Shown: positions 2,985 through 63,732 of the stretch, one piece after another | Layout: every line of letters starts with the position of its first letter | Position numbering within the stretch: position 1 is the stretch's first letter | Position numbers and translations under genes: made by a program | The notes under the pieces: model-generated | What the model was told of the DNA's origin: nothing | Database searches by the model: none | What the model saw: only the letters and a program-made list of their open reading frames with translations | Origin: Stegostoma tigrinum | Lineage: Eukaryota | Reading direction: 5' to 3' | DNA length: 64,000 nt | NCBI RefSeq assembly: GCF_030684315.1 | Contig: NC_081391.1 | Location: 21,474,629-21,538,628, forward strand

Positions 2985-3330
2985 TAGAATCATAGAAAAT
3001 AAATGTTGAGTCGGCCATTCATCCCTTGCAGCCTGCTCTGCCATTCCATGTGATTGTGGCTGATTCCATAACTCAGCACCATATTCTCACCCTCTCTGCA
3101 ATCCCTTTTGATCCAGCCCTCAAAGCTCTCCCCAATTCCTGTTTTAGCTTCAATCCTTTTCTGTGGCAGAGAATTCCACAGGTTCCACCACCCCGCCCCC
3201 CGAGGTGAAGAGATTTCTCCTCCCCTCAGTTCTAAATGTATCCTTAGATTGCAAACCCTGGTCCTGAACTCCCCCATAATCAGGAACATCCTTCCTGTCT
3301 TTTCCACAGCAGACACTGTTATAATTTTCT
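2985..3330 (-). mobile_element. Old CR1-like 3' end remnant, antisense; paralogues near 32425-32790, 40470-40830, 53600-53970, 60530-60880
   Basis: Minus frame ...RTEGRRNLFT...WNSLPQK and a TTCTATG-type tail. Confidence 0.65.
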
Positions 3331-3649
3331 ACGACCCAGAGACAATTTCCCAACTTTCTTTCCCAAATCCCAGCACAACAAGCTGAGAAACTGATGCCCC
3401 TCTTCCTCATTGAATCCCTCGTGCAGTTGCTCACAACCACCTTAATTTTTAAAAAATGTGTAACTTTTCTCAAACCATATTTACTTCTTTTAAAAAAGAA
3501 CCAAATAACACACGACCTGATTGAGTGGTGCAGAAGGTTTGAGATGCCGAATGGCCTCCTGCTGTTCCAATCACAGAATAACCATCCAGACCTGGCTCTC
3601 ATCTCCACCTCTGATCAGCTCTGCTTAACACACCCTCCCCCTCTCTCTC

Positions 3650-3757
3650 ATTGGTGCCTGTATGCATGGGTGGTTCCTGATTGGCCAGCAGCAACTGTCA
3701 GTCATCATCAGTTCTGCCTCTCTCTGTGTGACTGCAGGATGGTCCCAGGACTATAAA
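3650..3757 (+). promoter_or_regulatory. Core promoter of copy A: two inverted CCAAT boxes, TGACTGACAG (minus strand) and TATAAA
   Basis: ATTGG 3650 and 3680, CTGTCAGTCA 3695-3704, TATAAA 3752-3757; conserved before every intact copy. Confidence 0.75.
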
Positions 3758-3828
3758 TACAAGAGCCTGTGGGAGAGAGAGACTTAGTTCTAGAGTTTTC
3801 TTGGTGCTTGTGAGCAGGAATAGTGAAG

Positions 3829-6262
3829 ATGGTTTCCCAAGTGTGTCAGAACTACCACAAGGACTGTGAGGATGCTGTTAACAAGCAGATCAACCTGGAG
3901 CTCTATTCCTCCTATACTTACCACTCCATGGTGAGCTTTGTGGAATTGAAGCCTGTGCTATGATAGTGTTGACCTGTTTGGTTTTTATGCTGAGTTAATG
4001 AATTAGCTGTAACATGTATTATTTTCTGTTGCCCTTCCCCTGTTGCAATCTAGTGCAGGTCTTAACACTGACTCTCTGTTTAAAACCTGACCATTGTCTT
4101 CATGTCCAACTGGCTCCTGGATATGGAAGGCCAGCTTGCTGTCTCTGGACAATGTAACCCTTGGTGATTTTTCATCTAACTCTGGAGGGATGATGTGGTC
4201 TTTGTCAATAACTAACTTTTAAAATTGGTTGCATTCCTTTTCTCAACAAAAGCCTTCCCTGGTGGAAACTTTTCCTGACACAAATATACTCCTTTTTGTT
4301 TAAAACCTTGCCCCATTCACCAGACTGTCTTGTGCTCAGGATGTGAAGTTCCCTGAACTAAAAGAACAGCAGCTGCTGGACACTAAACACCAACAGAAAA
4401 GCTCTACACGTCTGGAAGAAAACCAAGCTCTGGGTCCACTGACCCTTTCTCAAGTGGCCTTGAGCTATGCAATGTGAGGAAAGAGGCACACTTTCACACT
4501 ATGTATGTGATTTTTTTTTTCTCTCTCTAACTAAGCAGTTAGAATTCTGTGGAGTGGATGGTAGGACACTGGGGTTATTCAGGTGGGTGATGGTGATAAT
4601 GAGGCTGCTGACTGAGCTTTCTGGCTGTGTTCACGAACACACGTCCCTTCATTCAGTTGGACAGGGGCCTAACTGGTCTCCACCTCCTGAACAATAGTGT
4701 TTCTAACCTGCAGAGCAGGGATGTCTAATGGCTGTAGACAGCTCTCCCCTTCATCAGGCACCATGCCACATGCACTGTCTCTCTCTCTCTCTCTCTCTCC
4801 TGAACACAGGCTAGGGATTGCATTTGGTTTTTGTCCTTGATTTCCAGAAAGCTGGTGAAATATCTGCACAAAGGCTGGTTAAGTATCTGTTGTTTGGGTT
4901 ATAATCCATGGAAGGTGACTTCCTGCTTTGTCTGTTTTTTACCACTTAAATGTGGAATCAAGATGGTGCCCAGGTTAGTTCCTGAGTGAGGAGTGTCATT
5001 CATGAATTTCAGACAGTTTCCTTTTAGCCTCTTTCTCCCCACAGTTCTCTTACTTTGACCGGGATGATGTTGCCCTGCATCACTTTGCTGAGTTCTTCAA
5101 GGAGCAGTCCCATGAGGAACGGGAACACACTGAGAAACTGATGGCATTCCAGAATAAACGTGGCGGTCGAATTGTGCTGCAGGACATTAAGGTTGGATTC
5201 TGAAGCCTTCTGTTTTGTGGCTTTTTGTGAGCAGCTACAATCGACTGGTTTCTCCAGCTAATTCAATTTAGCATTGAACAAATACTGTATGAAGGGGAGG
5301 TTGTTCACCAAAATAGGCTTCCTTTAGGTGAAAGGAAATAATCATCAATTGAGACTCACCAGAATAGTGAGTAGATATCAATGTGAATGACTCTCCTTTA
5401 GACAGAATAAGGGAACAAAAGCTAAGACAGGAAATTGTTGGAATGTGGAAAGTAGCAGTGTCCAGCCTTTCAGAATCTAGAAGATGTTTCTAATGCCACA
5501 ATCGTGAAGCCAGGAATTACTTCCATTGGTACCTATTCTCTGCATGTGAATTCTAAGAATCTACATGAACAGTAGAATGTGTTTAGAAAATTTCTTATTT
5601 CCCTCAGTACAAAATCTAGTTGTCTTGATCAAATTCAAGTTTGTAGTACCTCCCTACAATGATGAGGGATAACTAACTGGTGTAGACTGATGACTCAACT
5701 GCCTGCTGAACTGTGCTTTCTGTTCCCTCTTCCCTCCCTCCAGAAGCCAGAGCAGGATGAGTGGGGCAATGGTCTGGAGGCAATGCAGAGAGCTCTGCAG
5801 ATGGAGAAGGATGTGAACCAGAGTCTGCTGGATCTGCACAAACTGGCCTCTGGCCACATGGACCCTCATGTGAGTGTGGTGTATTTAAATCTGGGTTTTG
5901 AATTAAAAACAGGGATCAGACACTTGGTCCTTTTTGTGAGCCACAAGATCTCATTTGACACTGGAGGATTTTCTTGGGTTATACCAAGATCCTCCTGTTT
6001 GTAAAACTGAGCACTTTCTCGTGTGTATTTGGCAATCTCCATGACATCACTTCACTGTTCGGTCTCCCAAGCTGTATTTTGTCGGATTTAACCAGTTCCC
6101 CTCTTTGTCTTCCAGCTGTGTGACTTCCTGGAGAGGCACTACTTGGATGAGCAAGTGAGGATGATCAAGAAGCTGGGAGATCACATCACCAACCTGAAGA
6201 GACTGGGAGCCCCTGACAATGGCATGGGAGAGTACCTGTTTGACAGGCTCTCACTCAGTTGA
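3829..6262 (+). CDS. Ferritin subunit (H/M-type, ferroxidase centre intact), copy A; exons 3829-3930, 5045-5191, 5744-5869, 6116-6262; 173 aa
   Basis: Spliced translation [177 protein letters not shown] phase-0 introns at the vertebrate ferritin positions; TATA upstream; ATTAAA at 6331. Confidence 0.95.
4777..4799. repeat. (CT)n microsatellite in intron 1 of copy A
   Basis: Run of about 11 TC units. Confidence 0.8.
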
Positions 6263-7232
6263 ATGAGGTCAATAATGTGTATATTGTACATGGTGACATA
6301 ATGCTAGTAACTTGGTTGTGCTCTGAGCAAATTAAAATAGTGTTCACCATGGAACTGAGTACTTGGCATAATTTCACAGCTGACTCTGGCTCTTGGTATT
6401 GCTGTTTGACACCTGATCATTAATTCCTTTTCTGTTCTGATTAACCTTTGATTCAATGCCTGCCCCAGTGGTCTGCTCCTTTTCTCTTGTCTGTCGGAAT
6501 TAGGTGGGCAATCCTTGCAGTGGAAATTCCACAAGTGTTCAATTTGGGTTTTTGGCTAGTAAGCAGTGTTGTATTGACTCTTTTATTCCATACCAGCTTC
6601 TAGTCAATATCTTCAGTGAAACCAGCCCCCTGTCTCAATGTTAGACACTGCCCTTGGCAATGTTTAGGTCTCTTTTGTAAACAAGCAGGGGCAGGAAATA
6701 GTAGGTTTGGGGAGCCTCTGTGGAGAGAAAACTGTTCTCAGTCCCAGGTTCCAAGATACGTTATCATCTTGTGACAGACGTGGCCAGACCGGTGAGGCTT
6801 TCCAACAATTTTGTTGTCACACTTCAAATCTAATGATTTGAGCGTACATTGACTTTTTTGAACAGGAATATATATATATATAGTAGACCATCCAGCATTT
6901 CAGATGCTCAGATCTTTAGCATTTAGATAAGCCATTGTGTCCAGAGCAGGGAAATTGTTTTCTCTCTTTTGCTGCAGTGGTGGAAGGAGTGAGGGCAGTG
7001 GCTGTTTGTAGGAGAATGGCAAAGTTTGTTTTCTTGTGTATCAGTCTCTCTGCTTCTAGACAATGATCCTGATTAGGTAATGAAGCAGTCGCCACCTTCG
7101 AGCCCCTGTGGTAGAACTTCTATCACTTCTCTGCGGTCTAGAGACGTCAAATGCTCAGAACCCCTGGTGAAAATCAAGCTCGAACCCAACGGCCACTTGC
7201 AGAAAGCAGCAGTTCCTATTCTTAGCAAGGAA

Positions 7233-10055: not shown

Positions 10056-11269
10056 TTCTCTTACTTTGACCGGGATGATGTTGCCCTGCGTCACTTTGCT
10101 GAGTTCTTCAAGGAGCAGTCCCATGACGTGCAGGAACACGCTGAGAACCTGATGGCTTTCCAGAATAAACGTGGAGGTCGAGTCCTCCTGCAGGACATCA
10201 AGGTTGGATTCCAAAGCCTTCTGTTTGCAGCTTTTCGTGAAATACCACTCAATTGTGGCTAGCTCAATCTGTTTAGCTTCAGGACTGAACAAATGCTGTA
10301 TGAATGGGGGGGTTGCTCACCACAATAGGATTCCCTTCACTAAAAGGAAACACTTTTGCACTTGTGATTGAACAACAGTTGGCAATTGTGATAATCCAGT
10401 ATTCTGGATGGTGAGCACATATCGGTGTCTAACGCTGCTTTGGACAAGATGAGGTGTCAAAAGGGAAAGCAGAAATCTTTCAGGTGTGGAAAGCATCAGT
10501 ATGAAGCCTTTATACATCGAGAAGATGTTTCTGATGCCTTGAGATCACTCTGATCACAGCATAGCAGGATCTGTTTAGAAATGTCCCCTTCAAGAACAGT
10601 ACCAAATACAGCAGGTGTTTCACCAAGGTCAAGTTGGCCTGTAGTACGTCCCTACAATGATGAGGGATAACTAACTGATCAGATGTAGACTAATGATACA
10701 ACTGCCTGCTGAGCTGTGCTTTCTGTTGCTGCTTCCCTCCCTCCAGAAGCCAGAGCAGGATGAATGGGGCAATGGTCTGGAGGCAATGCAGAGAGCTCTG
10801 CACATGGAGAAGGATGTGAACCAGAGTCTGCTGGATCTGCACAAACTGGCCTCTGGCCACATGGACCCTCATGTGAGTGTGGTGTATTTAAATCTGGGTT
10901 TTTGAATGAAAACAGGGATCAGACACTTGGTCCTTTTTGTTAGCCACAAGATCTCACTTGACATTGTGGAGGGTATTGTTGGGTTGTACCAAGATCCTCC
11001 TGTTTCTAAAACTGAGCACTTTCTCGCGTGTATTTGGCAATTTCCATGACATCACTTCACTGTTCGGTCTCCCAATCTGCATTTTGTCAGATTTAACCAG
11101 TTCCCCTCTTTGCTTTCTCCAGCTGTGTGACTTCCTGGAGAGGCACTACTTGGATGAGCAAGTGAAGATGATCAAGAAGCTGGGAGATCACATCACCAAC
11201 CTGAAGAGACTGGGAGCCACTGACAATGGCATGGGAGAGTTCCTGTTTGACAGGCTCTCACTCAGCTGA
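10056..11269 (+). pseudogene. Ferritin pseudogene, copy B; exons 2-4 only (10056-10202, 10747-10872, 11123-11269)
   Basis: No promoter or exon 1 upstream; exon-2 acceptor CAG mutated to CGG (10053-10055); ferroxidase segment SHEEREH changed to SHDVQEH. Confidence 0.9.
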
Positions 11270-14348: not shown

Positions 14349-14426
14349 ATTGGCTAGCAGCAACTGTCAGTCATCATCAGTTCGGTCTCCCTCTGGGTGA
14401 GTGCCGGTTGTCTCAGGAGTAGAAAC
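14349..14426 (+). promoter_or_regulatory. Core promoter of copy C (CCAAT + TGACTGACAG, TATA degenerate)
   Basis: ATTGG 14349, CTGTCAGTCA 14364-14373, GTAGAAAC at the TATA position. Confidence 0.6.
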
Positions 14427-14495
14427 ACAACAGCTTTGGGGATTGAGGCCTTTGTTCCAGAGTTGTCCTTGTGATTGTGAGCAGGAATAGTGAAG

Positions 14496-16890
<2,395 letters not shown>

Positions 16891-18514: not shown

Positions 18515-18912
18515 TACTGTGTCACTTCATATCTGCTTCAGGTTGCTGTTTTAACACCCGATCACAAAATGGATTTTGTTCTTTGACAACCTTTTGATTC
18601 ACTGCCTGTCCCAGTAATTTGCTCGCTGTTTGCTTCTGAGTGTTTGTAGGGATTGAGTGGGCAATCTTGTCCTTGGAAATGCCACAACTGGCAAATATCT
18701 GCATTGCAGACAATGCCAGAACAAAATCTGTCCTCTGCTTCCCCAGGACAATTTTTCAGGACTAGCTTCTCGTCAAAACCATGACAGAAATCTGTCCTGT
18801 GCCTAAACGTTAGGCATTGCCAAGGCCCATCCATTCACTCAATCTTCAGCATTTTTGGAAAAATCAAGCTGACCCTGGAAACCAGGAACAAAAGCTGCTG
18901 GGAAATCTCAGG
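18515..18912 (+). other. Orphan ferritin 3' flank (gene body deleted)
   Basis: Nearly identical to 63833-64000 and similar to 35758-36160, but not preceded by exon 4. Confidence 0.85.
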
Positions 18913-19833
18913 CCAAGCAGCATCTCAGGGGCACAAAAGCTGACGTTTCGGGCCTAGACCCTTCATCAGAGATGGGGATGGGGAGAGGGAACTGGAATAA
19001 ACAGGGAGAGAGGGGGAGGTGGACCGAAGATGGAGAGTCAAGAAGATAGGTGGGGAGGGGATAGGTCAGTCCAGGGAAGACAGACAGGTCAAGGAGGTGG
19101 GATGAGGTTAGTAGGTAGATAGGGGTGCGGCTTGGGGTGGGAGGAAGGGATGGGTGAGTGGAAGAACCGGTTAGGGAGGCAGAGACAGGTTGGACTGGTT
19201 TTGGGATGCAGTGGGTGGGGGGGAAGAGCTGGGCTGGTTGTGTGGTGCAGTAGGGGGAGGGGACGAACTGGGCTGGTTTAGGGATGCAGTAGGGGAAGGG
19301 GAGATTTTGAAACTGGTGAAGTCCACATTGATACCATATGGCTGCAGGGTTCCCAGAGGGAATATGAGTTGCTGTTCCTGCAACCTTCGGGTGGCATCAT
19401 TGTGGCAGTGCAGGAGGCCCATGATGGACATGTCATCTAGAGAATGGGAGGGGGAGTGGAAACGGTTTGCGACTGGGAGGTGCAGTTGTTTGTTGCGAAC
19501 TGAGCGGAGGTGTTCTGCAAAGCGGTCTCCAAGCCTCCGCTTGGTTTCCCCAATGTAGAGGAAGGCACAGTGGGTGCAGTATACCACATTGGCAGATGTG
19601 CAGGTGAACCTCTGGTTCATGTGGAATGTCATCTTGGGGCCTGGGATAGGGGTGAGGGAGGAGGTGTGGGGGCAAGTGTAGCATTTCCTGCAGTTGCAGG
19701 GGAAGGTACCAGGTGTGGTGGGGTTGGAGGGCAGTGTGGAGCGAACAAGGGAGTCACGGATTGAGTGGTCTCTCCGGAAAGCAGACAGGGGTGGGGATGG
19801 AAAAATGTCTTGGGTGGTGGGGTCGGATTGTAA
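18911..19833 (-). mobile_element. 5'-truncated Penelope-like retroelement (GIY-YIG endonuclease region plus 3' terminal region)
   Basis: Minus-strand frame with FTCTSANVVYC..LYIGETKRRLGDRFAEHLR (GIY-YIG) and a preceding CxxxxCxxC linker; purine-rich low-complexity tract; hammerhead-like motif near the 3' end. Confidence 0.9.
18938..18973 (-). ncRNA. Minimal type-I hammerhead ribozyme motif of the Penelope element
   Basis: Minus strand reads CTGATGA-AGGGTCTAGGCCC-GAAA-CGTC-AG: intact core, stem II GGG/CCC, palindromic ACGT mini stem III, GUC site. Confidence 0.6.
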
Positions 19834-22224
<2,391 letters not shown>

Positions 22225-25743: not shown

Positions 25744-25821
25744 ATTGGCTAGCAGCAATTGTCAGTCATCATCAGTTCTGCCTCTCCATGGGTGAGTGCA
25801 GGATGGTCCCAGGACTATAAA
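25744..25821 (+). promoter_or_regulatory. Core promoter of copy E
   Basis: ATTGG 25744, TTGTCAGTCA variant 25759-25768, TATAAA 25816. Confidence 0.65.
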
Positions 25822-25870
25822 TACAGAGCCTGTGGAAGAGCAACTCACTTCTTGAGTGGGAATAGTGAAG

Positions 25871-28821
<2,951 letters not shown>

Positions 28822-33120: not shown

Positions 33121-33198
33121 ATTGGCCAGCAGCAACTGTCAGTCATCATCAGTTCTGCCTCTCTCTGTGTGACTGCAGGATGGTCCCAGGACTATAAA
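33121..33198 (+). promoter_or_regulatory. Core promoter of copy F
   Basis: ATTGG 33121, CTGTCAGTCA 33136-33145, TATAAA 33193. Confidence 0.7.
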
Positions 33199-33269
33199 TA
33201 CAAGAGCCTGTGGGAGAGAGAGACTTAGTTCTAGAGTTTTCTTGGTGCTTGTGAGCAGGAATAGTGAAG

Positions 33270-35657
33270 ATGGTTTCCCAAGTGTGTCAGAACTACCACA
33301 AGGACTGTGAGGATGCTGTTAACAAGCAGATCAACCTGGAGCTCTATTCCTCCTATACTTACCACTCCATGGTGAGCTTTGTGGAATTGAAGCCTGTGCT
33401 ATGATAGTGTTGACCTGTTTGGTTTTTACGCTGGGTTAATGAATTAGCTGTAACATGTATTATTTTCTGTGGCCCTTCCCCTGTTGCAATCTAGTGCAGG
33501 TCTTAACACTGACTCTCTGTTCAAAACCTGACCATTGTCTTCATGTCCAACTGGCTCCTGGATGTGGACGCCCAGCTTGCTGTCTCTGGACAATGTAACC
33601 CTTGGTGATTTTTCATCTAACTCTGGAGGGATGATGTGGTCTTTGTCAATAACTAACTTTTAAAATTGGTTGCATTCCTTTTCTCAACAAAAGCCTTCCC
33701 TGGTGGAAACTTTTCCTGACACAAATATACTCCTTTTTGTTTAAAACCTTGCCCCATTCACCAGACTGTCTTGTGCTCAAGATGTAAAGTTCCCTGAACT
33801 AAAAGAACAGCAGCTGCTGGACACTAAACACCAACAGAAAAGCTCTAAACATCTGGTTGAAAACCAAGCTCTGGGTCCACTGACCCTTTCTCAAGTGGCT
33901 TTGAGCTGTGCAATGTGAGGAAAGAGGCACATTTTCACACTATGTAGGTGATCTTTTTTCTCTCTCTAACAAAGCAGTTAGAATTCTGTGGAGTGGATGG
34001 TAGGACACTGGGGTTATTCAGGTGGGTGATGGTGATAATGAGGCTGCTGACTGAGCTTTCTGGCTGTGTTCACGAACACATGTCCCTTCATTCAGTTGGA
34101 CAGGGGCCTAACTGGTCTCCACCTCCTGAACAATAGTGTTTCTAACCTGCAGAGCAGGGATGTCTAATGGCTATAGACAGCTCTCCCCTTCATCAGGCAC
34201 CATGCCACATGTACTGTCTCTCTTTCTCGCTCACACAGGCCAGGGATTGCATTTGCTTTTTGTCCTTGATTTCCAGAAAGCTGGTGAAATATCTGCACAA
34301 AGGCTGCTTCAGTATTTGTTGTTTGGGTTATAATCCATGGAAGGTGACTTCCTGCTTTGTCTGTTTTTTACCACTTAAATGTGGAATCAAGATGGTGCCC
34401 AGGTTATTTCCTGAGTGAGGAGTGTCATTCACGAATTTCAGACAGTTTCCTTTTAACCTCTCTCTCTCTCCCCCCACAGTTCTCTTACTTTGAACGGGAT
34501 GATGTTGCCCTGCATCACTTTGCTGAGTTCTTCAAGGAGCAGTCCCATGAGGAACGGGAACACGCTGAGAAACTGATGGCATTCCAGAATAAACGTGGAG
34601 GTCGAGTCCTCCTGCAGGACATGAAGGTTGGATTCTGAAGCCTTCTGTTTGTGTAGCTCTTTGTGAGCAGCTACAATCGACTGGTGTCTCCCTCTATTTA
34701 GCTTTAGCATTGAACAAATACTGTATGAAGGGGAGGTTGTTCTGCAAAATAGGCTTCCTTGAGGTGAAAGGAAATAATCATCAATTGAGACTCACCAGAA
34801 TAGTGAGTAGATATCAATGTGAATGACTCTCCTTTAGACAGAATAAGGGAACAAAAGCTAAGACAGGAAATTGTTGCAGTGTGGAAAGTAGCAGTGTCCA
34901 GCCTAACAGAATCTGGAAGATGTTTCTAACACCACAATCGTGAAGCCTATTCTCTGCATGTGAATTGAGAATCGACATGAACAGTAGAATGTGTTTAGAA
35001 AATTTCTTATTCCCTCAGTACAAAATCTAGTTGTCTTGATCAAATTGAAGTTTGTTTGTTGTACCTCCTACAATGATGAGGGATACTAACCGATGTAGAC
35101 TAATGATACAACTGCCTGCTGAACTCTGCTTTCTGTTCCCACTTCCCTCCCTCCAGAAGCCAGAGCAGGATGAGTGGGGCAATGGTCTGGAGGCAATGCA
35201 GAGAGCTCTGCAGATGGAGAAGGATGTGAACCAGAGTCTGCTGGATCTGCACAAACTGGCCTCTGGCCACACTGACCCTCATGTGAGTTTGTAAACTGTA
35301 TTCTCTCTCTTCCTTGGAAGAAAGTGATGTGTTTGTGCACTCTCTCTTGGTTTAAAAATCCAATTACCTTCTCCAAGCTTCCTACCGGCTGGTAGAACCT
35401 TTCAAAGGCATCACCTAAGTGGACCTCCACGTGGTGGTGATGGTCACATCTGTCATGGGAAGTCACTTTCAGACACCTTTTTGATCCTCTGGACTAATTT
35501 TGTCTTCCAGCTGTGTGACTTCCTGGAGAGGCACTACCTGGATGAGCAAGTGAAGATGATCAAGAAGCTGGGAGATCACATCACCAACCTGAAGAGACTG
35601 GGAGCCCCTGACAATGGCACGGGAGAGTACCTGTTTGATAGGCTCACACTCAGCTGA
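33270..35657 (+). CDS. Ferritin subunit, copy F; exons 33270-33371, 34480-34626, 35157-35282, 35511-35657
   Basis: Open 173-aa spliced frame, canonical splice sites, TATA at 33193, AATAAA about 70 nt after the stop. Confidence 0.95.
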
Positions 35658-41168: not shown

Positions 41169-41246
41169 ATTGGCCACCAGCAACTGTCAGTCATCATCAG
41201 TTCTGCCTCTCTCTGTGTGACTGCAGGATGGTCCCAGGACTATAAA
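41169..41246 (+). promoter_or_regulatory. Core promoter of copy G
   Basis: ATTGG 41169, CTGTCAGTCA 41184-41193, TATAAA 41241. Confidence 0.7.
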
Positions 41247-41317
41247 TACAAGAGCCTGTGGGAGAGAGAGACTTAGTTCTAGAGTTTTCTTGGTGCTTGT
41301 GAGCAGGAATAGTGAAG

Positions 41318-43586
<2,269 letters not shown>

Positions 43587-47048: not shown

Positions 47049-47127
47049 ATTGGCTAGCAGCAACTGTCAGTCATCATCAGTTCTACCCCCTCCATGGGTG
47101 AGTGCAGGATGGCCCCAGGAGTATAAA
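47049..47127 (+). promoter_or_regulatory. Core promoter of copy H
   Basis: ATTGG 47049, CTGTCAGTCA 47064-47073, TATAAA 47122. Confidence 0.7.
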
Positions 47128-47195
47128 TACAGAGCTTGTGGAAGAGCAACTCACTTCTTGAGTGGTTTTGGTTTTAGTCAGTGGGGATAGTCAGG

Positions 47196-50163
47196 ATGGT
47201 TTCCCAAGTGTGTCAGAATTACCACAAGGACTGTGAGGATGCTGTTAACAAGCAGATCAACCTGGAGCTCTATTCCTCCTATGTTTACCTCTCCATGGTG
47301 AGCTTTGTCACATTGAGGACCTGACCTCAAATTGAAGCCTGTGATAGACTTGCATTGACTCTCTTAGGTTTATTTTCTTGCTTAGTTTAATGATTTAGTT
47401 GTAGCATGTGTTTTGGTCTGTGGCCCTTCCCTGACTGAATCCAGTGAAATGGTTCACACTGACTCTGTTGGAAACTTGATGTTTGTCTTGTATTGCAACT
47501 GACTCCTGGGTGACAATGGCCACTTTGTTATCTCTGGACAATGTACCCCTTTTGTGATTTTTCTCCTTGCTCTGAAGGGATGAGCTGGTGTTGCTGATAA
47601 ACCTATATTTTCCTTTAAATTTGGTTGCAATTTTTTAAAGAAACACTCTTTTCCCTAGTGTAAATGTTTCTGTGCAAAATGTACTTGCACTCTTAAAATG
47701 TTGCTCCATTTGCCAGGCTGTCCTCTGCTCTGGCCCTAAATGAGTTTTTCTGTTCTAAAAGAACAGCAACTCCTGGAAATTAGGAACAGCATAAAGAGCT
47801 GGAATAGCTTTAAAGATCTGGCAGGACTTATAGAGAAATCAGTTCATGTTTTGCGTCCAGTGACCCTTCCTCAGAAGTCATCCTCCTAGCTATTCAGTAG
47901 GAGGAAAGACAAGTGTGGTATGTTCTCACACTCCAAATGTGAAATACTGAAGAAACAAGTTAGAACTTAGTGCTGGGGAGAAGGTAGGACAGAGTGGGGT
48001 TATTCAGGTGGGTGATGTTGGTAATGCTGGAGCTCACTGCGATTCATGGTTCTGTTCATCCATGTGTCCCTTCATCCACTGCAGCGTTCCTGATTGGCTG
48101 GTTCTATGTCCTCTCTTTTGGCTATAATCCATGGGAGAAGACCTCTTGTTTCTGCCTGTCTATCATGTTCCAGTAATTAAATGTCCAGTTCTGGTTGCCA
48201 CACTAACAAAAGGATGTGAATGCTTTGGAAGGGGTACAGAGGAGGTTCACCAGGATGTTGTCTGGTATGGACGGTGTGAGCTAGAAAGCAAGGTTGAGTA
48301 GATGAGGCTTATTTTCACTAGAAGGTGGGAGATTTGGGGGTGTGGTCCTGATTGATCCCCTCAAATTCATGAGGGGTGTAGACAAGGTGGATAGCAAGAA
48401 GCTTTTTCCTAGAGTGGGGGACTCAATTACAGGGGTCATGAGCTCAAAGTAAGAGCAGTAATGTTTTTAGGGGAGATTGGGTTAGATTCCTTTCAGTACG
48501 GAAACAGGCCCGTTAGCTCAAAGTCCACACTGGCCCTTGAAGCATCCCACCCAGACACATTCCCCTATATCCCCCATACTTCTGAATGCTATGGGCAATT
48601 TATCATGTGGATATGCTTGGAAAGCTCATTACGCAGAGGTTGGAGGGAGCCTGGCACACACAACCTGTGGAGGTGGTAGACGAAGTCACGCTAGTGTGTT
48701 AAGATCCAGCTGGACAGGTACATGGATGGGCAGGGAGCAAAGGGATACTGACTGCAGAAAAGAGATGACAGACGTAAACAGGATCTCAATCGGTGCAGGC
48801 TTGGAGGGCCAAAGGGCCTGTTCCTGTGCTGTGATTTTCTTTGTTCTTAAATGTGGAATCAAGATGGTGACCAGGTTAGTTTCTGATTGAGGAGTGCCAC
48901 TGATTAACTTCAGATATGTTTCCCTTTCCTGCCTTTCTCTCTCCCTCCCCACAGTTCTCTTACTTTGACCAGGATGATGTTGCCCTGCGTCACTTTGCTG
49001 AGTTCTTCAAGGAGCAGTCCCATGAAGAGCGGGAACACGCTGAGAAACTGATGGCTTTGCAGAATAAACGTGGAGGCCGAATCCTCCTGCAGGACATCAA
49101 GGTTGGATTCCAAAGCTTTCTTTTGCCGCTTTTTGTGAAATACCACTCAATTGTGGCTAGCTCAATCAGTTTAGCTTCAGGACTGAACAAATGCTGTATG
49201 AATGGGGGGTTGCTCACACAATAAGATTCCCTTCACTAAAAGGAAACACTTTTGCACTTGTGATTGAACAACAGTTGACAATTGAGATCATCCAGTATTC
49301 TGGATGGTGAGCAAATATCAGTGTCCACCGTTGCTTTGGACAAGATGAGGTGTCAAAAGGGAAAACCGAAATCTTTCAGGTGTGGAAACCATCAGTATGA
49401 AGCCTTTATACATCTAAAGATGTTTCTGATGCCTTGTGATCATTCTGATCACAGCATAGCAGGATCTGTTTAGAAATGTCCCCTTCAAGAACAGTACCAA
49501 ATACAGCAGGTGTTTTGCCAAGGTCAAGTTGGCCTGTAGTACCTCCCCTACAATGATGAGGGGTAACTAACTGATCAGATGTAGACTAATGATACAACTG
49601 CCTGCTGAGCTGTGCTTTCTGTTCCTGCTTCCCTCCCTCCAGAAGCCAGAGCAGGATGAGTGGGGCAATGGTCTGGAGGCAATGCAGAGAGCTCTGCAGA
49701 TGGAAAAGGATGTGAACCAGAGTCTGCTGGATCTGCACAAACTGGCCTCTGGCCACACAGACCCTCATGTGAGTGTGGTGTATTTAAATCGGGGATTTTG
49801 TATAAAACCAGGAATCAGACACTTGGACCTTTTCGTTAGCCACAAGATCTCAGTTGACATTGTGGAGGGTTTTCTTGGGTTATACCAAGATCCTCCAGTT
49901 TCTAAAACTGAGCACTTGCTCACGTGTATTTGGCAATCTCCATGACATCACTTCACTGTTTGGTCTCCCAAGCTGTATTTGGTCAGATTTAACCAGTTCC
50001 CCTCTTTGCTTTCCAGCTGTGTGACTTCCTGGAGAGGCACTACTTGGATGAGCAAGTGAAGATGATCAAGAAGCTGGGAGATCACATCACCAACCTGAAG
50101 AGACTGGGAGCCCCTGACAATGGCATGGGAGAGTACCTGTTTGACGGGCTCTCACTCAGCTGA
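47196..50163 (+). CDS. Ferritin subunit, copy H; exons 47196-47297, 48955-49101, 49643-49768, 50017-50163
   Basis: Open 173-aa spliced frame, canonical splice sites, TATA at 47122. Confidence 0.93.
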
Positions 50164-54310: not shown

Positions 54311-54388
54311 ATTGGCCAGCAGCAACTGTCAGTCATCATCAGTTCGGTCTCCCTCTGGGTGAGTGCCGGTTGTCTCAGGAGTAGAAAC
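54311..54388 (+). promoter_or_regulatory. Core promoter of copy I (TATA degenerate)
   Basis: ATTGG 54311, CTGTCAGTCA 54326-54335, GTAGAAAC 54381. Confidence 0.6.
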
Positions 54389-54457
54389 ACAACAGCTTTG
54401 GGGATTGAGGCCTTTGTTCCAGAGTTGTCCTTGTGATTGTGAGCAGGAATAGTGAAG

Positions 54458-56852
54458 ATGGCTTCCCAAGTGTGTCAGAACTACCACAAGGACTGTGAGG
54501 ATGCTGTTAACAAGCAGATCAACCTGGAGCTCTGTTCCTCCTATGTTTACCTCTCCATGGTGAGCTTTGTGGAATTGAAGCCTGTGTGATAACAGTGTTG
54601 ACCTGTTTGGGGTTTTTATGCTGGGTTAATGACTTAGCCGTAGCATGTATTGTTTTCTGTGGCCCTTCCCCTGATGCAATCTCGTGCAAGTCCTAACACT
54701 GACTCTCTGTTCAGGTTTTGAACACTGTCTTAATATACAACTGGCTCCTGGGTGTGGATCCCCAGTTGTCCATCTCGGGACAGTGTAGCCTTTGGTGATT
54801 GTTTTCGTTGAACTCTGGAGGGTTGAGCTGGTTTTGCTGATAAATTTAACTTGGTTATATCCCTTTTCTTCAGAAAACCTTCCCTGGTAGGACACAAATG
54901 TATCCTTTTGTTTGAACCTTGCCCCATTTGCCAGACTGGCTTATGTTCAAGATCTAAAGTTCCCTTAACTAAAGACAGCAACTGCTGGAAATCAAACAGC
55001 AACAAGAATAGCTAGAAAAGTTCTACAGATCTGCAAGGAATGGTGGAAGAAATCCGGTCAAATTTTGGGTCCACTGACCCTTGCTCAGTGTGTTTTGTGA
55101 GCTATGAAAAGTGGCACACACTTGAAATATTAACTCGTGTACAACAAAGCAGTTAGAATTCTGTGTGGAGTGGGTGGTAGGACACTAGGGTTATTCAGGT
55201 GGGTGATGGTGATAATGAGGCTGCTGACTGAGATTTCTGGCTGTGTTAATGACTGACTGCATTATTCATAGCATTTCATTCAGTTGGACAGGGGTCTAAC
55301 TAGTCTCCACCTTGCGAACAATAGTGTTTTATCACCTGCAGAACAGGGATATCTAATGGCTATAGACAGCTGTCTCCTTCATTGTGCACCATGCCACACT
55401 CTATCGCACCATTTTAGCAAAACACAGGTGAGGGATTGCATTTGGTTTTTGTCCTCTATTTCCAGAAGTCTGGCTAAGTATCTGTTACATGGGTTATAAT
55501 CCATGGAAGGTGACTTCCTGGCTCTCTCTAGTTTTGCCCACTTAAATGTGGAGTCAAGATGGTAACTGGGTTAGTATCTGAGAAGAGGCATTGATGTATT
55601 TCAGTCATTTCCCTTTATTGCCTCTTTCCACCGACAGGTCTCTTACTTTGACCGGGATGATGTTGCCCTGCATCACTTTGCTGAGTTCTTCAAGGAGCAG
55701 TCCCATGAGGAGCGGGAACACGCTGAGAAACTGATGGCTTTCCAGAATAAACGTGGAGGCCGAATCCTCCTGCAGGACATCAAGGTTGGATTCCAAAGCT
55801 TTCTTTTGCAGCTTTTTGTGAAATACCACTCAATTGTGGCTAGCTCAATCTGTTTAGCTTCAGGACTGAGCAAATACTGTATGAATGGGGGGGGGTTGCT
55901 CACCACAATACGATTCCCTTCACTAAAAGGAAACACTTTTGCACGTGATTGAACAATAGTTGGCAATTGTGATAATCCAGTATTCTGGATGGTGAGCAAA
56001 TATCGGTGTCTACCGCTGCTTTGGACAAGATGAGGTGTCAAAAGGGAAAACAGAAATCTTTCAGGTGTGGAAAGCATCAGTATGAAGCCTTAATACATCT
56101 AGAAGATGTTTCTGATGCCTTGTGATTACTCTGATCACAGCATAGCAGGATCTGTTTAGAAATGTCCCCTTCAAGAACAGTACCAAATACAGCAAGTGTT
56201 TCACCAAGGTCAAGTCGGCCTGTAGTACTTCCCCTACAATGATGAGGGATAATTAACTGATCAGATGTAGACTAATGATACAACTGCCTGCTGAGCTGTG
56301 CTTTCTGTTCCTGCTTCCCTCCCTCCAGAAGCCAGAGCAGGATGAGTGGGGCAATGGTCTGGAGGCAATGCAGAGAGCTCTGCAGATGGAGAAGGATGTG
56401 AACCAGAGTCTGCTGGATCTGCACAAACTGGCCTCTGGCCACACGGACCCTCATGTGAGTGTGGTGTATTTAAATCAGGGATTTTGAATTAAAAACAGGG
56501 ATCAGACACTTGGTCCTTTTCGTTAGCCACAAGATCTCCTTTGACATTGTGGAGGGTTTTCTTGGGTTATACCAAGATCCTCCTGTTTCTAAAACTGAGC
56601 ACTTTCTTGAGTGTATTTGGCAATCTCCATGACATCACTTCACTGTTCGGTCTCCCAAGCTGTATTTTGTTGGATTTAACCAGTTCCCCTCTTTGCTTTC
56701 TCCAGCTGTGTGACTTCCTGGAGAGGCACTACTTGGATGAGCAAGTGAAGATGATCAAGAAGCTGGGAGATCACATCACCAACCTGAAGAGACTGGGAGC
56801 CACTGCCAATGGCATGGGAGAGTACCTGTTTGACAGGCTCACACTCAGCTGA
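54458..56852 (+). CDS. Ferritin subunit, copy I; exons 54458-54559, 55638-55784, 56329-56454, 56706-56852
   Basis: Open 173-aa spliced frame; near-duplicate of copy C including the TATA-less promoter and the LELCSSY variant. Confidence 0.9.
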
Positions 56853-61224: not shown

Positions 61225-61302
61225 ATTGGCCAGCAGCAACTGTCAGTCATCATCAGTTCTGCCTCTCTCTGTGTGACTGCAGGATGGTCCCAGGACTATA
61301 AA
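61225..61302 (+). promoter_or_regulatory. Core promoter of copy J
   Basis: ATTGG 61225, CTGTCAGTCA 61240-61249, TATAAA 61297. Confidence 0.7.
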
Positions 61303-61373
61303 TACAAGAGCCTGTGGGAGAGAGAGACTTAGTTCTAGAGTTTTCTTGGTGCTTGTGAGCAGGAGTAGTGAAG

Positions 61374-63732
<2,359 letters not shown>

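Follow-up and report, generated by a model that had tools for sequence, protein, structure and literature searches.

In vertebrates, IRPs repress ferritin translation through an iron-responsive element (IRE) that lies within the 5' UTR (PMC2896125), and this element, which is taken to be a defining feature of cytosolic ferritin genes in vertebrates, has served as a screen for genuine vertebrate ferritin genes (PMC4117605). The 64-kb stretch of shark DNA analyzed here, referred to throughout as the window, contains a series of ferritin genes for which an initial annotation proposed that all copies lack the IRE and that the family is uncoupled from cellular iron sensing, being controlled by transcription and copy number instead. 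Two questions are raised by this locus, namely whether an IRE is truly absent from these genes and, if so, what would set their output in its place.

Organization of the ferritin array

A local search of the window identified a tandem array of ten ferritin copies, designated A to J, all of which lie on the + strand at a spacing of one per about 6-7 kb. Eight of the ten are intact, and in each of these four coding exons (102, 147, 126 and 147 nt), separated by three GT-AG introns, encode 173 residues. Coding-sequence identity among the eight ranges from 93.5 to 99%, and a tree of their coding sequences is mostly unresolved. The broken copies, B and D, are both devoid of a promoter and a start codon. 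The ten copies are as follows.

Gene A, coding exons 3829-3930, 5045-5191, 5744-5869 and 6116-6262, + strand: GT-AG introns, 173 aa, ATTAAA at 6331-6336
Copy B, 10056..11269, + strand: exons 2-4 only, with GG replacing AG before exon 2
Gene C, 14420..16890, + strand: intact, ATG at 14496, TAGAAACA at the TATA position, C/I leader without an IRE
Copy D, 19834..22224, + strand: promoter absent, codon 1 is ATA, reading frame shifted by 1 nt at the exon 3 end
Gene E, 25816..28821, + strand: intact, TATA at 25816, ATG at 25871, predicted leader of about 24 nt
Gene F, 33193..35657, + strand: intact, TATA at 33193, ATG at 33270, A-type leader, no IRE
Gene G, 41241..43586, + strand: intact, TATA at 41241, ATG at 41318, A-type leader, no IRE
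Gene H, 47122..50163, + strand: intact, TATA at 47122, ATG at 47196, E/H leader, CAGUG word without a stem or bulged C
Gene I, 54382..56852, + strand: intact, ATG at 54458, TAGAAACA at the TATA position, no IRE
Gene J, 61297..63732, + strand: intact, TATA at 61297, ATG at 61374, A-type leader, no IRE, Lys in place of Glu61

Exon 1 and a promoter were sought for copy B and none was found, LINE-like DNA being located upstream. That two of ten copies are broken suggests that the array undergoes birth-and-death turnover. Codon 1 of copy D adjoins an upstream GIY-YIG-like element (window 18900-19833; E 0.023, below the cut-off), which is presumably of the Penelope type. Among 8000 candidates scored, the best named eukaryote matches to a LINE reverse-transcriptase ORF come from Chiloscyllium and Stegostoma (65%), with rays at 50-57% and birds and turtles at up to about 51%; matches that rank similarly or higher include CR1-like LINE proteins under Klebsiella and Proteus labels on contigs of about 1.6 kb, and these look like vertebrate contamination in public records. 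The LINE thus points, indirectly, to a shark as the likely host.

A separate observation concerns intron 2, in which a C/D-box-like motif (RTGATGA ... CTGA) is located at window 5655-5711, some 35 nt ahead of the acceptor of exon 3, with intron 2 equivalents at 10653, 16272, 28207, 42996, 49549 and 56235. The Rfam sR1 model matches seven copies below threshold (best 27.1 bits versus a gathering score of 45), and the motif aligns in nine of the ten copies, the end of the intron being different in J. This motif is possibly an intronic snoRNA, and possibly a chance occurrence.

Promoters and leaders of the intact genes

The region upstream of the first coding exon is set out here for gene A.

3567..3687, + strand: upstream promoter block, with CCAAT at 3567 and inverted CCAAT at 3650 and 3680
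3677-3687, + strand: Y-box-like CTGATTGGCCA, enclosing the inverted CCAAT at 3680
3752..3759, + strand: TATA box TATAAATA, with the ATG at 3829-3831
3782..3828, + strand: predicted 5' UTR of 43-47 nt from an inferred start, with an initiator-like motif at 3784-3790, no IRE and no upstream ATG

Each of the eight promoters contains three CCAAT boxes, the nearest of which lies inside an 11-mer that resembles the Y-box consensus. This 11-mer has eight matches in the window versus 0.21 expected, though these are copies of one element. Counted from the initial T at the TATA position up to the A of the start codon, the spacing is 77 nt in A, F, G and J, 76 nt in C and I, 74 nt in H and 55 nt in E, a range across the eight intact genes that is close to the 50-75 nt or so originally claimed. 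Similarly, the proposed division into three leader types (A/F/G/J, C/I and E/H) is upheld by alignment, and a promoter tree recovers both E/H and C/I (100/100 each). The presumption that every leader follows a TATA box holds for A, E, F, G, H and J but not for C and I, which read TAGAAACA at this position (14420-14427 and 54382-54389, respectively), have no initiator match and keep the CCAAT block; these two may represent weaker or TATA-less copies. In the other six genes an initiator-like motif is found 31-34 nt past the TATA box, so that the predicted leader measures about 43 nt in A, F, G, J and H and 24 nt in E.

Comparison between leader types reveals that conservation is distributed unevenly across this region. 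Specifically, identity is 96.6% (A/C/H) and 95.5% (A/C/E) in the CCAAT block, 95.4% (A/C/H) and 92.2% (A/C/E) in exon 1, 70.9% (A/C/H) and 80.6% (A/C/E, with 27% gaps) in the predicted UTR, and 68-74% in intron 1. As the leader appears to drift at the rate of an intron, it is unlikely to contain a selected RNA element.

Encoded proteins

Under the residue numbering of the salmon ferritin paper (PMC4117605), the ferroxidase residues E24, Y31, E58, E59, H62, E104 and Q138 are invariant in all eight intact genes, while the nucleation residues E54 and E61 are present in eight and seven, respectively, gene J having Lys at the latter position. These diagnostic residues follow the M-chain pattern of that paper, and by them the encoded proteins are provisionally placed as M/L-type, ferroxidase-competent cytosolic subunits. 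Genes C and I share Cys26 and Val35. Vertebrate H chains typically have Arg at positions 6 and 19; exon 1 of all eight intact genes encodes Cys6 and Lys19. Position 19 is a contact for NCOA4 in ferritinophagy, and Lys at this contact could result in slower ferritin turnover.

These data bear on the proposal that neutral loss of the IRE took place in a founder copy and has no adaptive meaning, the array being largely redundant and decaying. Consistent with such a history, two of ten copies are broken, the TATA box is degenerate in two more, amino-acid variants are many and the spacers are rich in transposons. The invariance of the seven ferroxidase-centre positions argues against it, as do a pooled pN/pS of 0.34, which shows moderate constraint only (37 non-synonymous versus 30 synonymous alleles; 28 non-independent pairs), and a promoter block conserved as well as the coding sequence, a pattern that gene conversion could mimic in part. 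Additionally, ferritin clusters are reported to be shared by the Greenland and great white sharks across about 250 million years (bioRxiv 10.1101/2024.09.09.611499). Neutral loss is, on this evidence, distinctly unlikely.

Search for an iron-responsive element

As defined for SIREs, an IRE consists of a CAGWGH apical loop in the 5' UTR, carried on a 5-bp upper stem with an unpaired C8, and tolerates at most one mismatch or bulge and at most two G.U pairs (PMC2896125). These rules were coded for canonical loops and applied with a Markov control of 30 resamples, alongside Rfam scans. Across the whole 64 kb, Rfam returned no match at the gathering score and nine at E<=10, none of them an IRE, the model having been run without a positive control. 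Short-window Rfam scans of the leaders of A (four matches), C (one) and H (none) likewise contained no IRE; the leader of gene E was covered by the whole-window Rfam scan and the SIREs-rule scan only. With canonical loops, the SIREs-rule scan found no match in any of the eight leaders or the ten 3' ends. A single match was returned on the + strand of the 64 kb (40269, intergenic, MFE -1.8), where the control gave a mean of 1.53 and a range of 0-4. This candidate was rejected, as it is located about 1 kb upstream of G, folds weakly and is at chance level.

Inspection of individual loop words yields a similar picture. CAGWGH words are absent from A, F, G and J and present in the leaders of C, I and H, as well as just behind the TATA box in E and H. 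Five canonical words lie near ATGs, one each in C, I and E and two in H; in all five, position 8 is a U in place of the bulged C, and one or two of five pairs form. A few variants of the 16 SELEX loops have no match in the leaders, and the predicted leader of gene E leaves no room for an IRE that includes a lower stem. The word TTGGTGCTTG, put forward in the initial annotation as the nearest relic of an IRE, was discarded as a product of chance: its 7-mer core recurs at three unrelated sites in the window, where simple arithmetic predicts about four, and the word is missing from the C/I and E/H leader types.

Absence of the IRE from the leaders is thereby borne out by the Rfam and SIREs-rule scans, which identified none in eight. 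The broader wording, that all copies lack a leader IRE, stands for these eight and does not extend to B and D, which have no leader at all. The eight intact genes encode an M-like protein but are not canonical IRE-regulated vertebrate ferritin genes. At the 3' ends, where the ten copies contain no IRE, a CPE-like hexamer is present in only two (B and E) and a strict Pumilio site in none, such that a maternal control code in the 3' UTR is unsupported.

It could be argued that the real mRNA acquires an IRE through an upstream start or a non-coding exon, or that IRPs bind a non-canonical hairpin within the leader. The start site is a predicted one, and a donor-like GGTGAGT lies shortly upstream of the TATA position in C, E, H and I, overlapping an MRE-like motif in E and H. 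In addition, a loop-agnostic scan recovers one to three hairpins near each ATG, all of them imperfect and unconserved. Set against these points, the sequence upstream of each gene is its own spacer only, the one IRE-like match is at chance level and upstream of G alone, in none of the eight genes is there a pyrimidine-rich acceptor at 80 nt or less from the ATG, and the leaders are unconserved.

A further argument comes from sequencing runs, four of which, out of six listed, were aligned to window 3000-6500; two (X1 and X2) are presumed to be RNA and one (X6) is DNA-like. Run X1, which comes from a relative, contains a contig of 693 nt from which all three introns are missing and whose four aligned segments carry 28 other letters in total. 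The alignment begins at 3810 and covers leader positions 3810-3828; beyond it the contig extends for nine further letters, of which five match the window in register by eye. The spliced contig, which comes from one study only, begins 28 nt before the ATG, an end that is a contig end and not a start. Colinearity with the window 5' of the ATG, across the nearest CAG, means that no foreign upstream exon is visible, and the contig shows no sign of an IRE. Coverage in run X2 falls outside exon 1 and the leader. Three contigs of run X6 lack intron 3, being joined 5869-6116 exactly at GT..AG, and suggest that processed ferritin copies exist in that organism; a retrocopy could therefore mimic the spliced contig of X1. 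Considering both sides, a hidden or non-canonical IRE is very improbable. Over exon 2, runs X1 and X2 additionally reveal another, more divergent ferritin, which in X1 differs at 11 of 58 nt, and the presence of this second ferritin in a relative makes IRE-bearing ferritins elsewhere in the organism probable.

Comparison with known ferritin systems

The Greenland shark genome is reported to contain 155 'FTL' and 179 'FTH1' copies, about 80% of which are found in three clusters, the largest displaying ovary-specific expression (bioRxiv 10.1101/2024.09.09.611499). These clusters and the window are alike in consisting of tandem, mostly full-length ferritin genes; the published copies are labelled FTL/FTH1, and their UTRs are not discussed. 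The terms 'IRE', 'UTR' and 'iron' each occur 0 times in the preprint (10.1101/2024.09.09.611499). The window genes most likely belong to the published ovary-expressed shark ferritin clusters.

Salmon M1-M3, representatives of the teleost and amphibian M chain, share with the window genes an organization of four exons and three introns, a full ferroxidase centre, Glu54 and Glu61, and the existence of several paralogues (PMC4117605). In contrast to the window genes, all five salmon isoforms have a 5' IRE, and their ORFs measure 531-537 bp, compared with 173 aa here; the M chain is placed with tetrapod L (PMC4117605).

Mammalian FTMT, the IRE-independent vertebrate case documented in the papers cited here, resembles the window genes in being outside IRE/IRP regulation but is a retrogene that has no introns and neither TATA nor CCAAT, whereas the window genes keep introns and CCAAT boxes (PMC7760355, PMC5312872). 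Their N-terminus is polar by inspection, and the 173-aa protein has no N-terminal extension comparable to the FTMT targeting signal. FTHL17 is likewise not known to carry an IRE. This germline ferritin, encoded by six genes in mouse, is ferroxidase-inactive, while the window genes keep their ligands (PMC7760355, PMC5312872). Since introns, promoter and ligands are all retained in the window, the IRE would have been lost without retroposition.

Outside the vertebrates, the yolk ferritin of the snails Biomphalaria and Lymnaea is likewise without an IRE and provisions eggs, with ordinary soma ferritins alongside, but that protein is secreted and possesses both a signal peptide and an insertion of 42 aa (PMC10799875), neither of which is present in the window genes by inspection. 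A search of the open-access and bioRxiv literature recovered no report that the shark clusters, or any vertebrate array with introns and a complete catalytic centre, had lost the IRE.

A model for IRE-independent ferritin production

Considered as a whole, the data make it probable, though well short of certain, that the window is a shark tandem cluster of IRE-less, promoter-driven M/L ferritins that are expressed in the ovary and serve as a maternal iron store or buffer. Transcription would start about 30 nt after the TATA box, and IRP1/2 would find nothing to bind, such that translation would not be held back at low cytosolic iron. If the mRNAs are translated whatever the IRP activity, output would be set by promoter activity and gene number. 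CCAAT/Y-box promoters have been linked to oocytes, and the cluster may be switched on in the ovary, in oocyte or follicle, a step suggested jointly by this promoter type and by the shark preprint. Many copies without a translational brake would generate a large stock of ferritin in eggs, which could be used to load yolky eggs with iron or to protect long-lived oocytes against free iron; somatic iron would be left to ordinary ferritins that bear an IRE and lie elsewhere. An abundance of ferritin mRNA in vertebrate ovaries is supported in general terms (PMC1488847).

The claim that the family is uncoupled from cellular iron sensing can be retained in part. The sequence gives good support for an escape from translational repression by IRP1/2, given the absence of an IRE, the short leader drifting at the rate of an intron and the conserved promoter, and control by copy number is plausible. 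The claim does not hold beyond translation: transcription and turnover could still respond to iron, and an MRE-like motif is present in the E/H promoters.

This same motif is compatible with a different function, in which the array would be an IRE-less somatic family supplying antioxidant or stress dosage as opposed to an ovarian store. The precedent is fthl27 of the hadal snailfish, like the window a tandem ferritin expansion in a fish, where 14 copies are read as gene dosage, expression is broad and high in most tissues, and overexpression lowers ROS; the term 'IRE' occurs 0 times in the available part of that paper (PMC10746142). Against such a role, the shark cluster with expression data is the ovary-specific one (10.1101/2024.09.09.611499), and a pattern scan that covered 330 nt from each of the eight ATGs returned no ARE, AP-1 or HRE. 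A somatic stress family is accordingly unlikely.

Returning to a maternal store, a more ambitious history may be sketched tentatively, although it is more doubtful than the store itself: an intron-containing M/L gene would have shed its IRE, gained an oocyte-type CCAAT/Y-box promoter and expanded to >100 copies, giving rise to an ancient shark class of maternal ferritins that converges on the logic of snail yolk ferritin. Within this history, loss of the IRE would have made amplification useful, because IRE-bearing copies in such number would either be subject to IRP repression or titrate the IRPs.

Significance

Shark ferritin clusters are already known, as are the IRE-independent ferritins FTMT and snail yolk ferritin. 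The findings presented here are a caution against interpreting the number of ferritin copies in sharks in terms of longevity or somatic iron biology. They also suggest a straightforward check on further ferritin arrays in fish, namely whether the IRE is absent from the expanded copies. The locus would gain in interest should IRE loss prove to mark the cluster clade as a whole and eggs prove to contain the product. If the proposed reading is true, an intact, intron-bearing and catalytically complete family of IRE-less genes would explain how the huge ferritin clusters of sharks can work.
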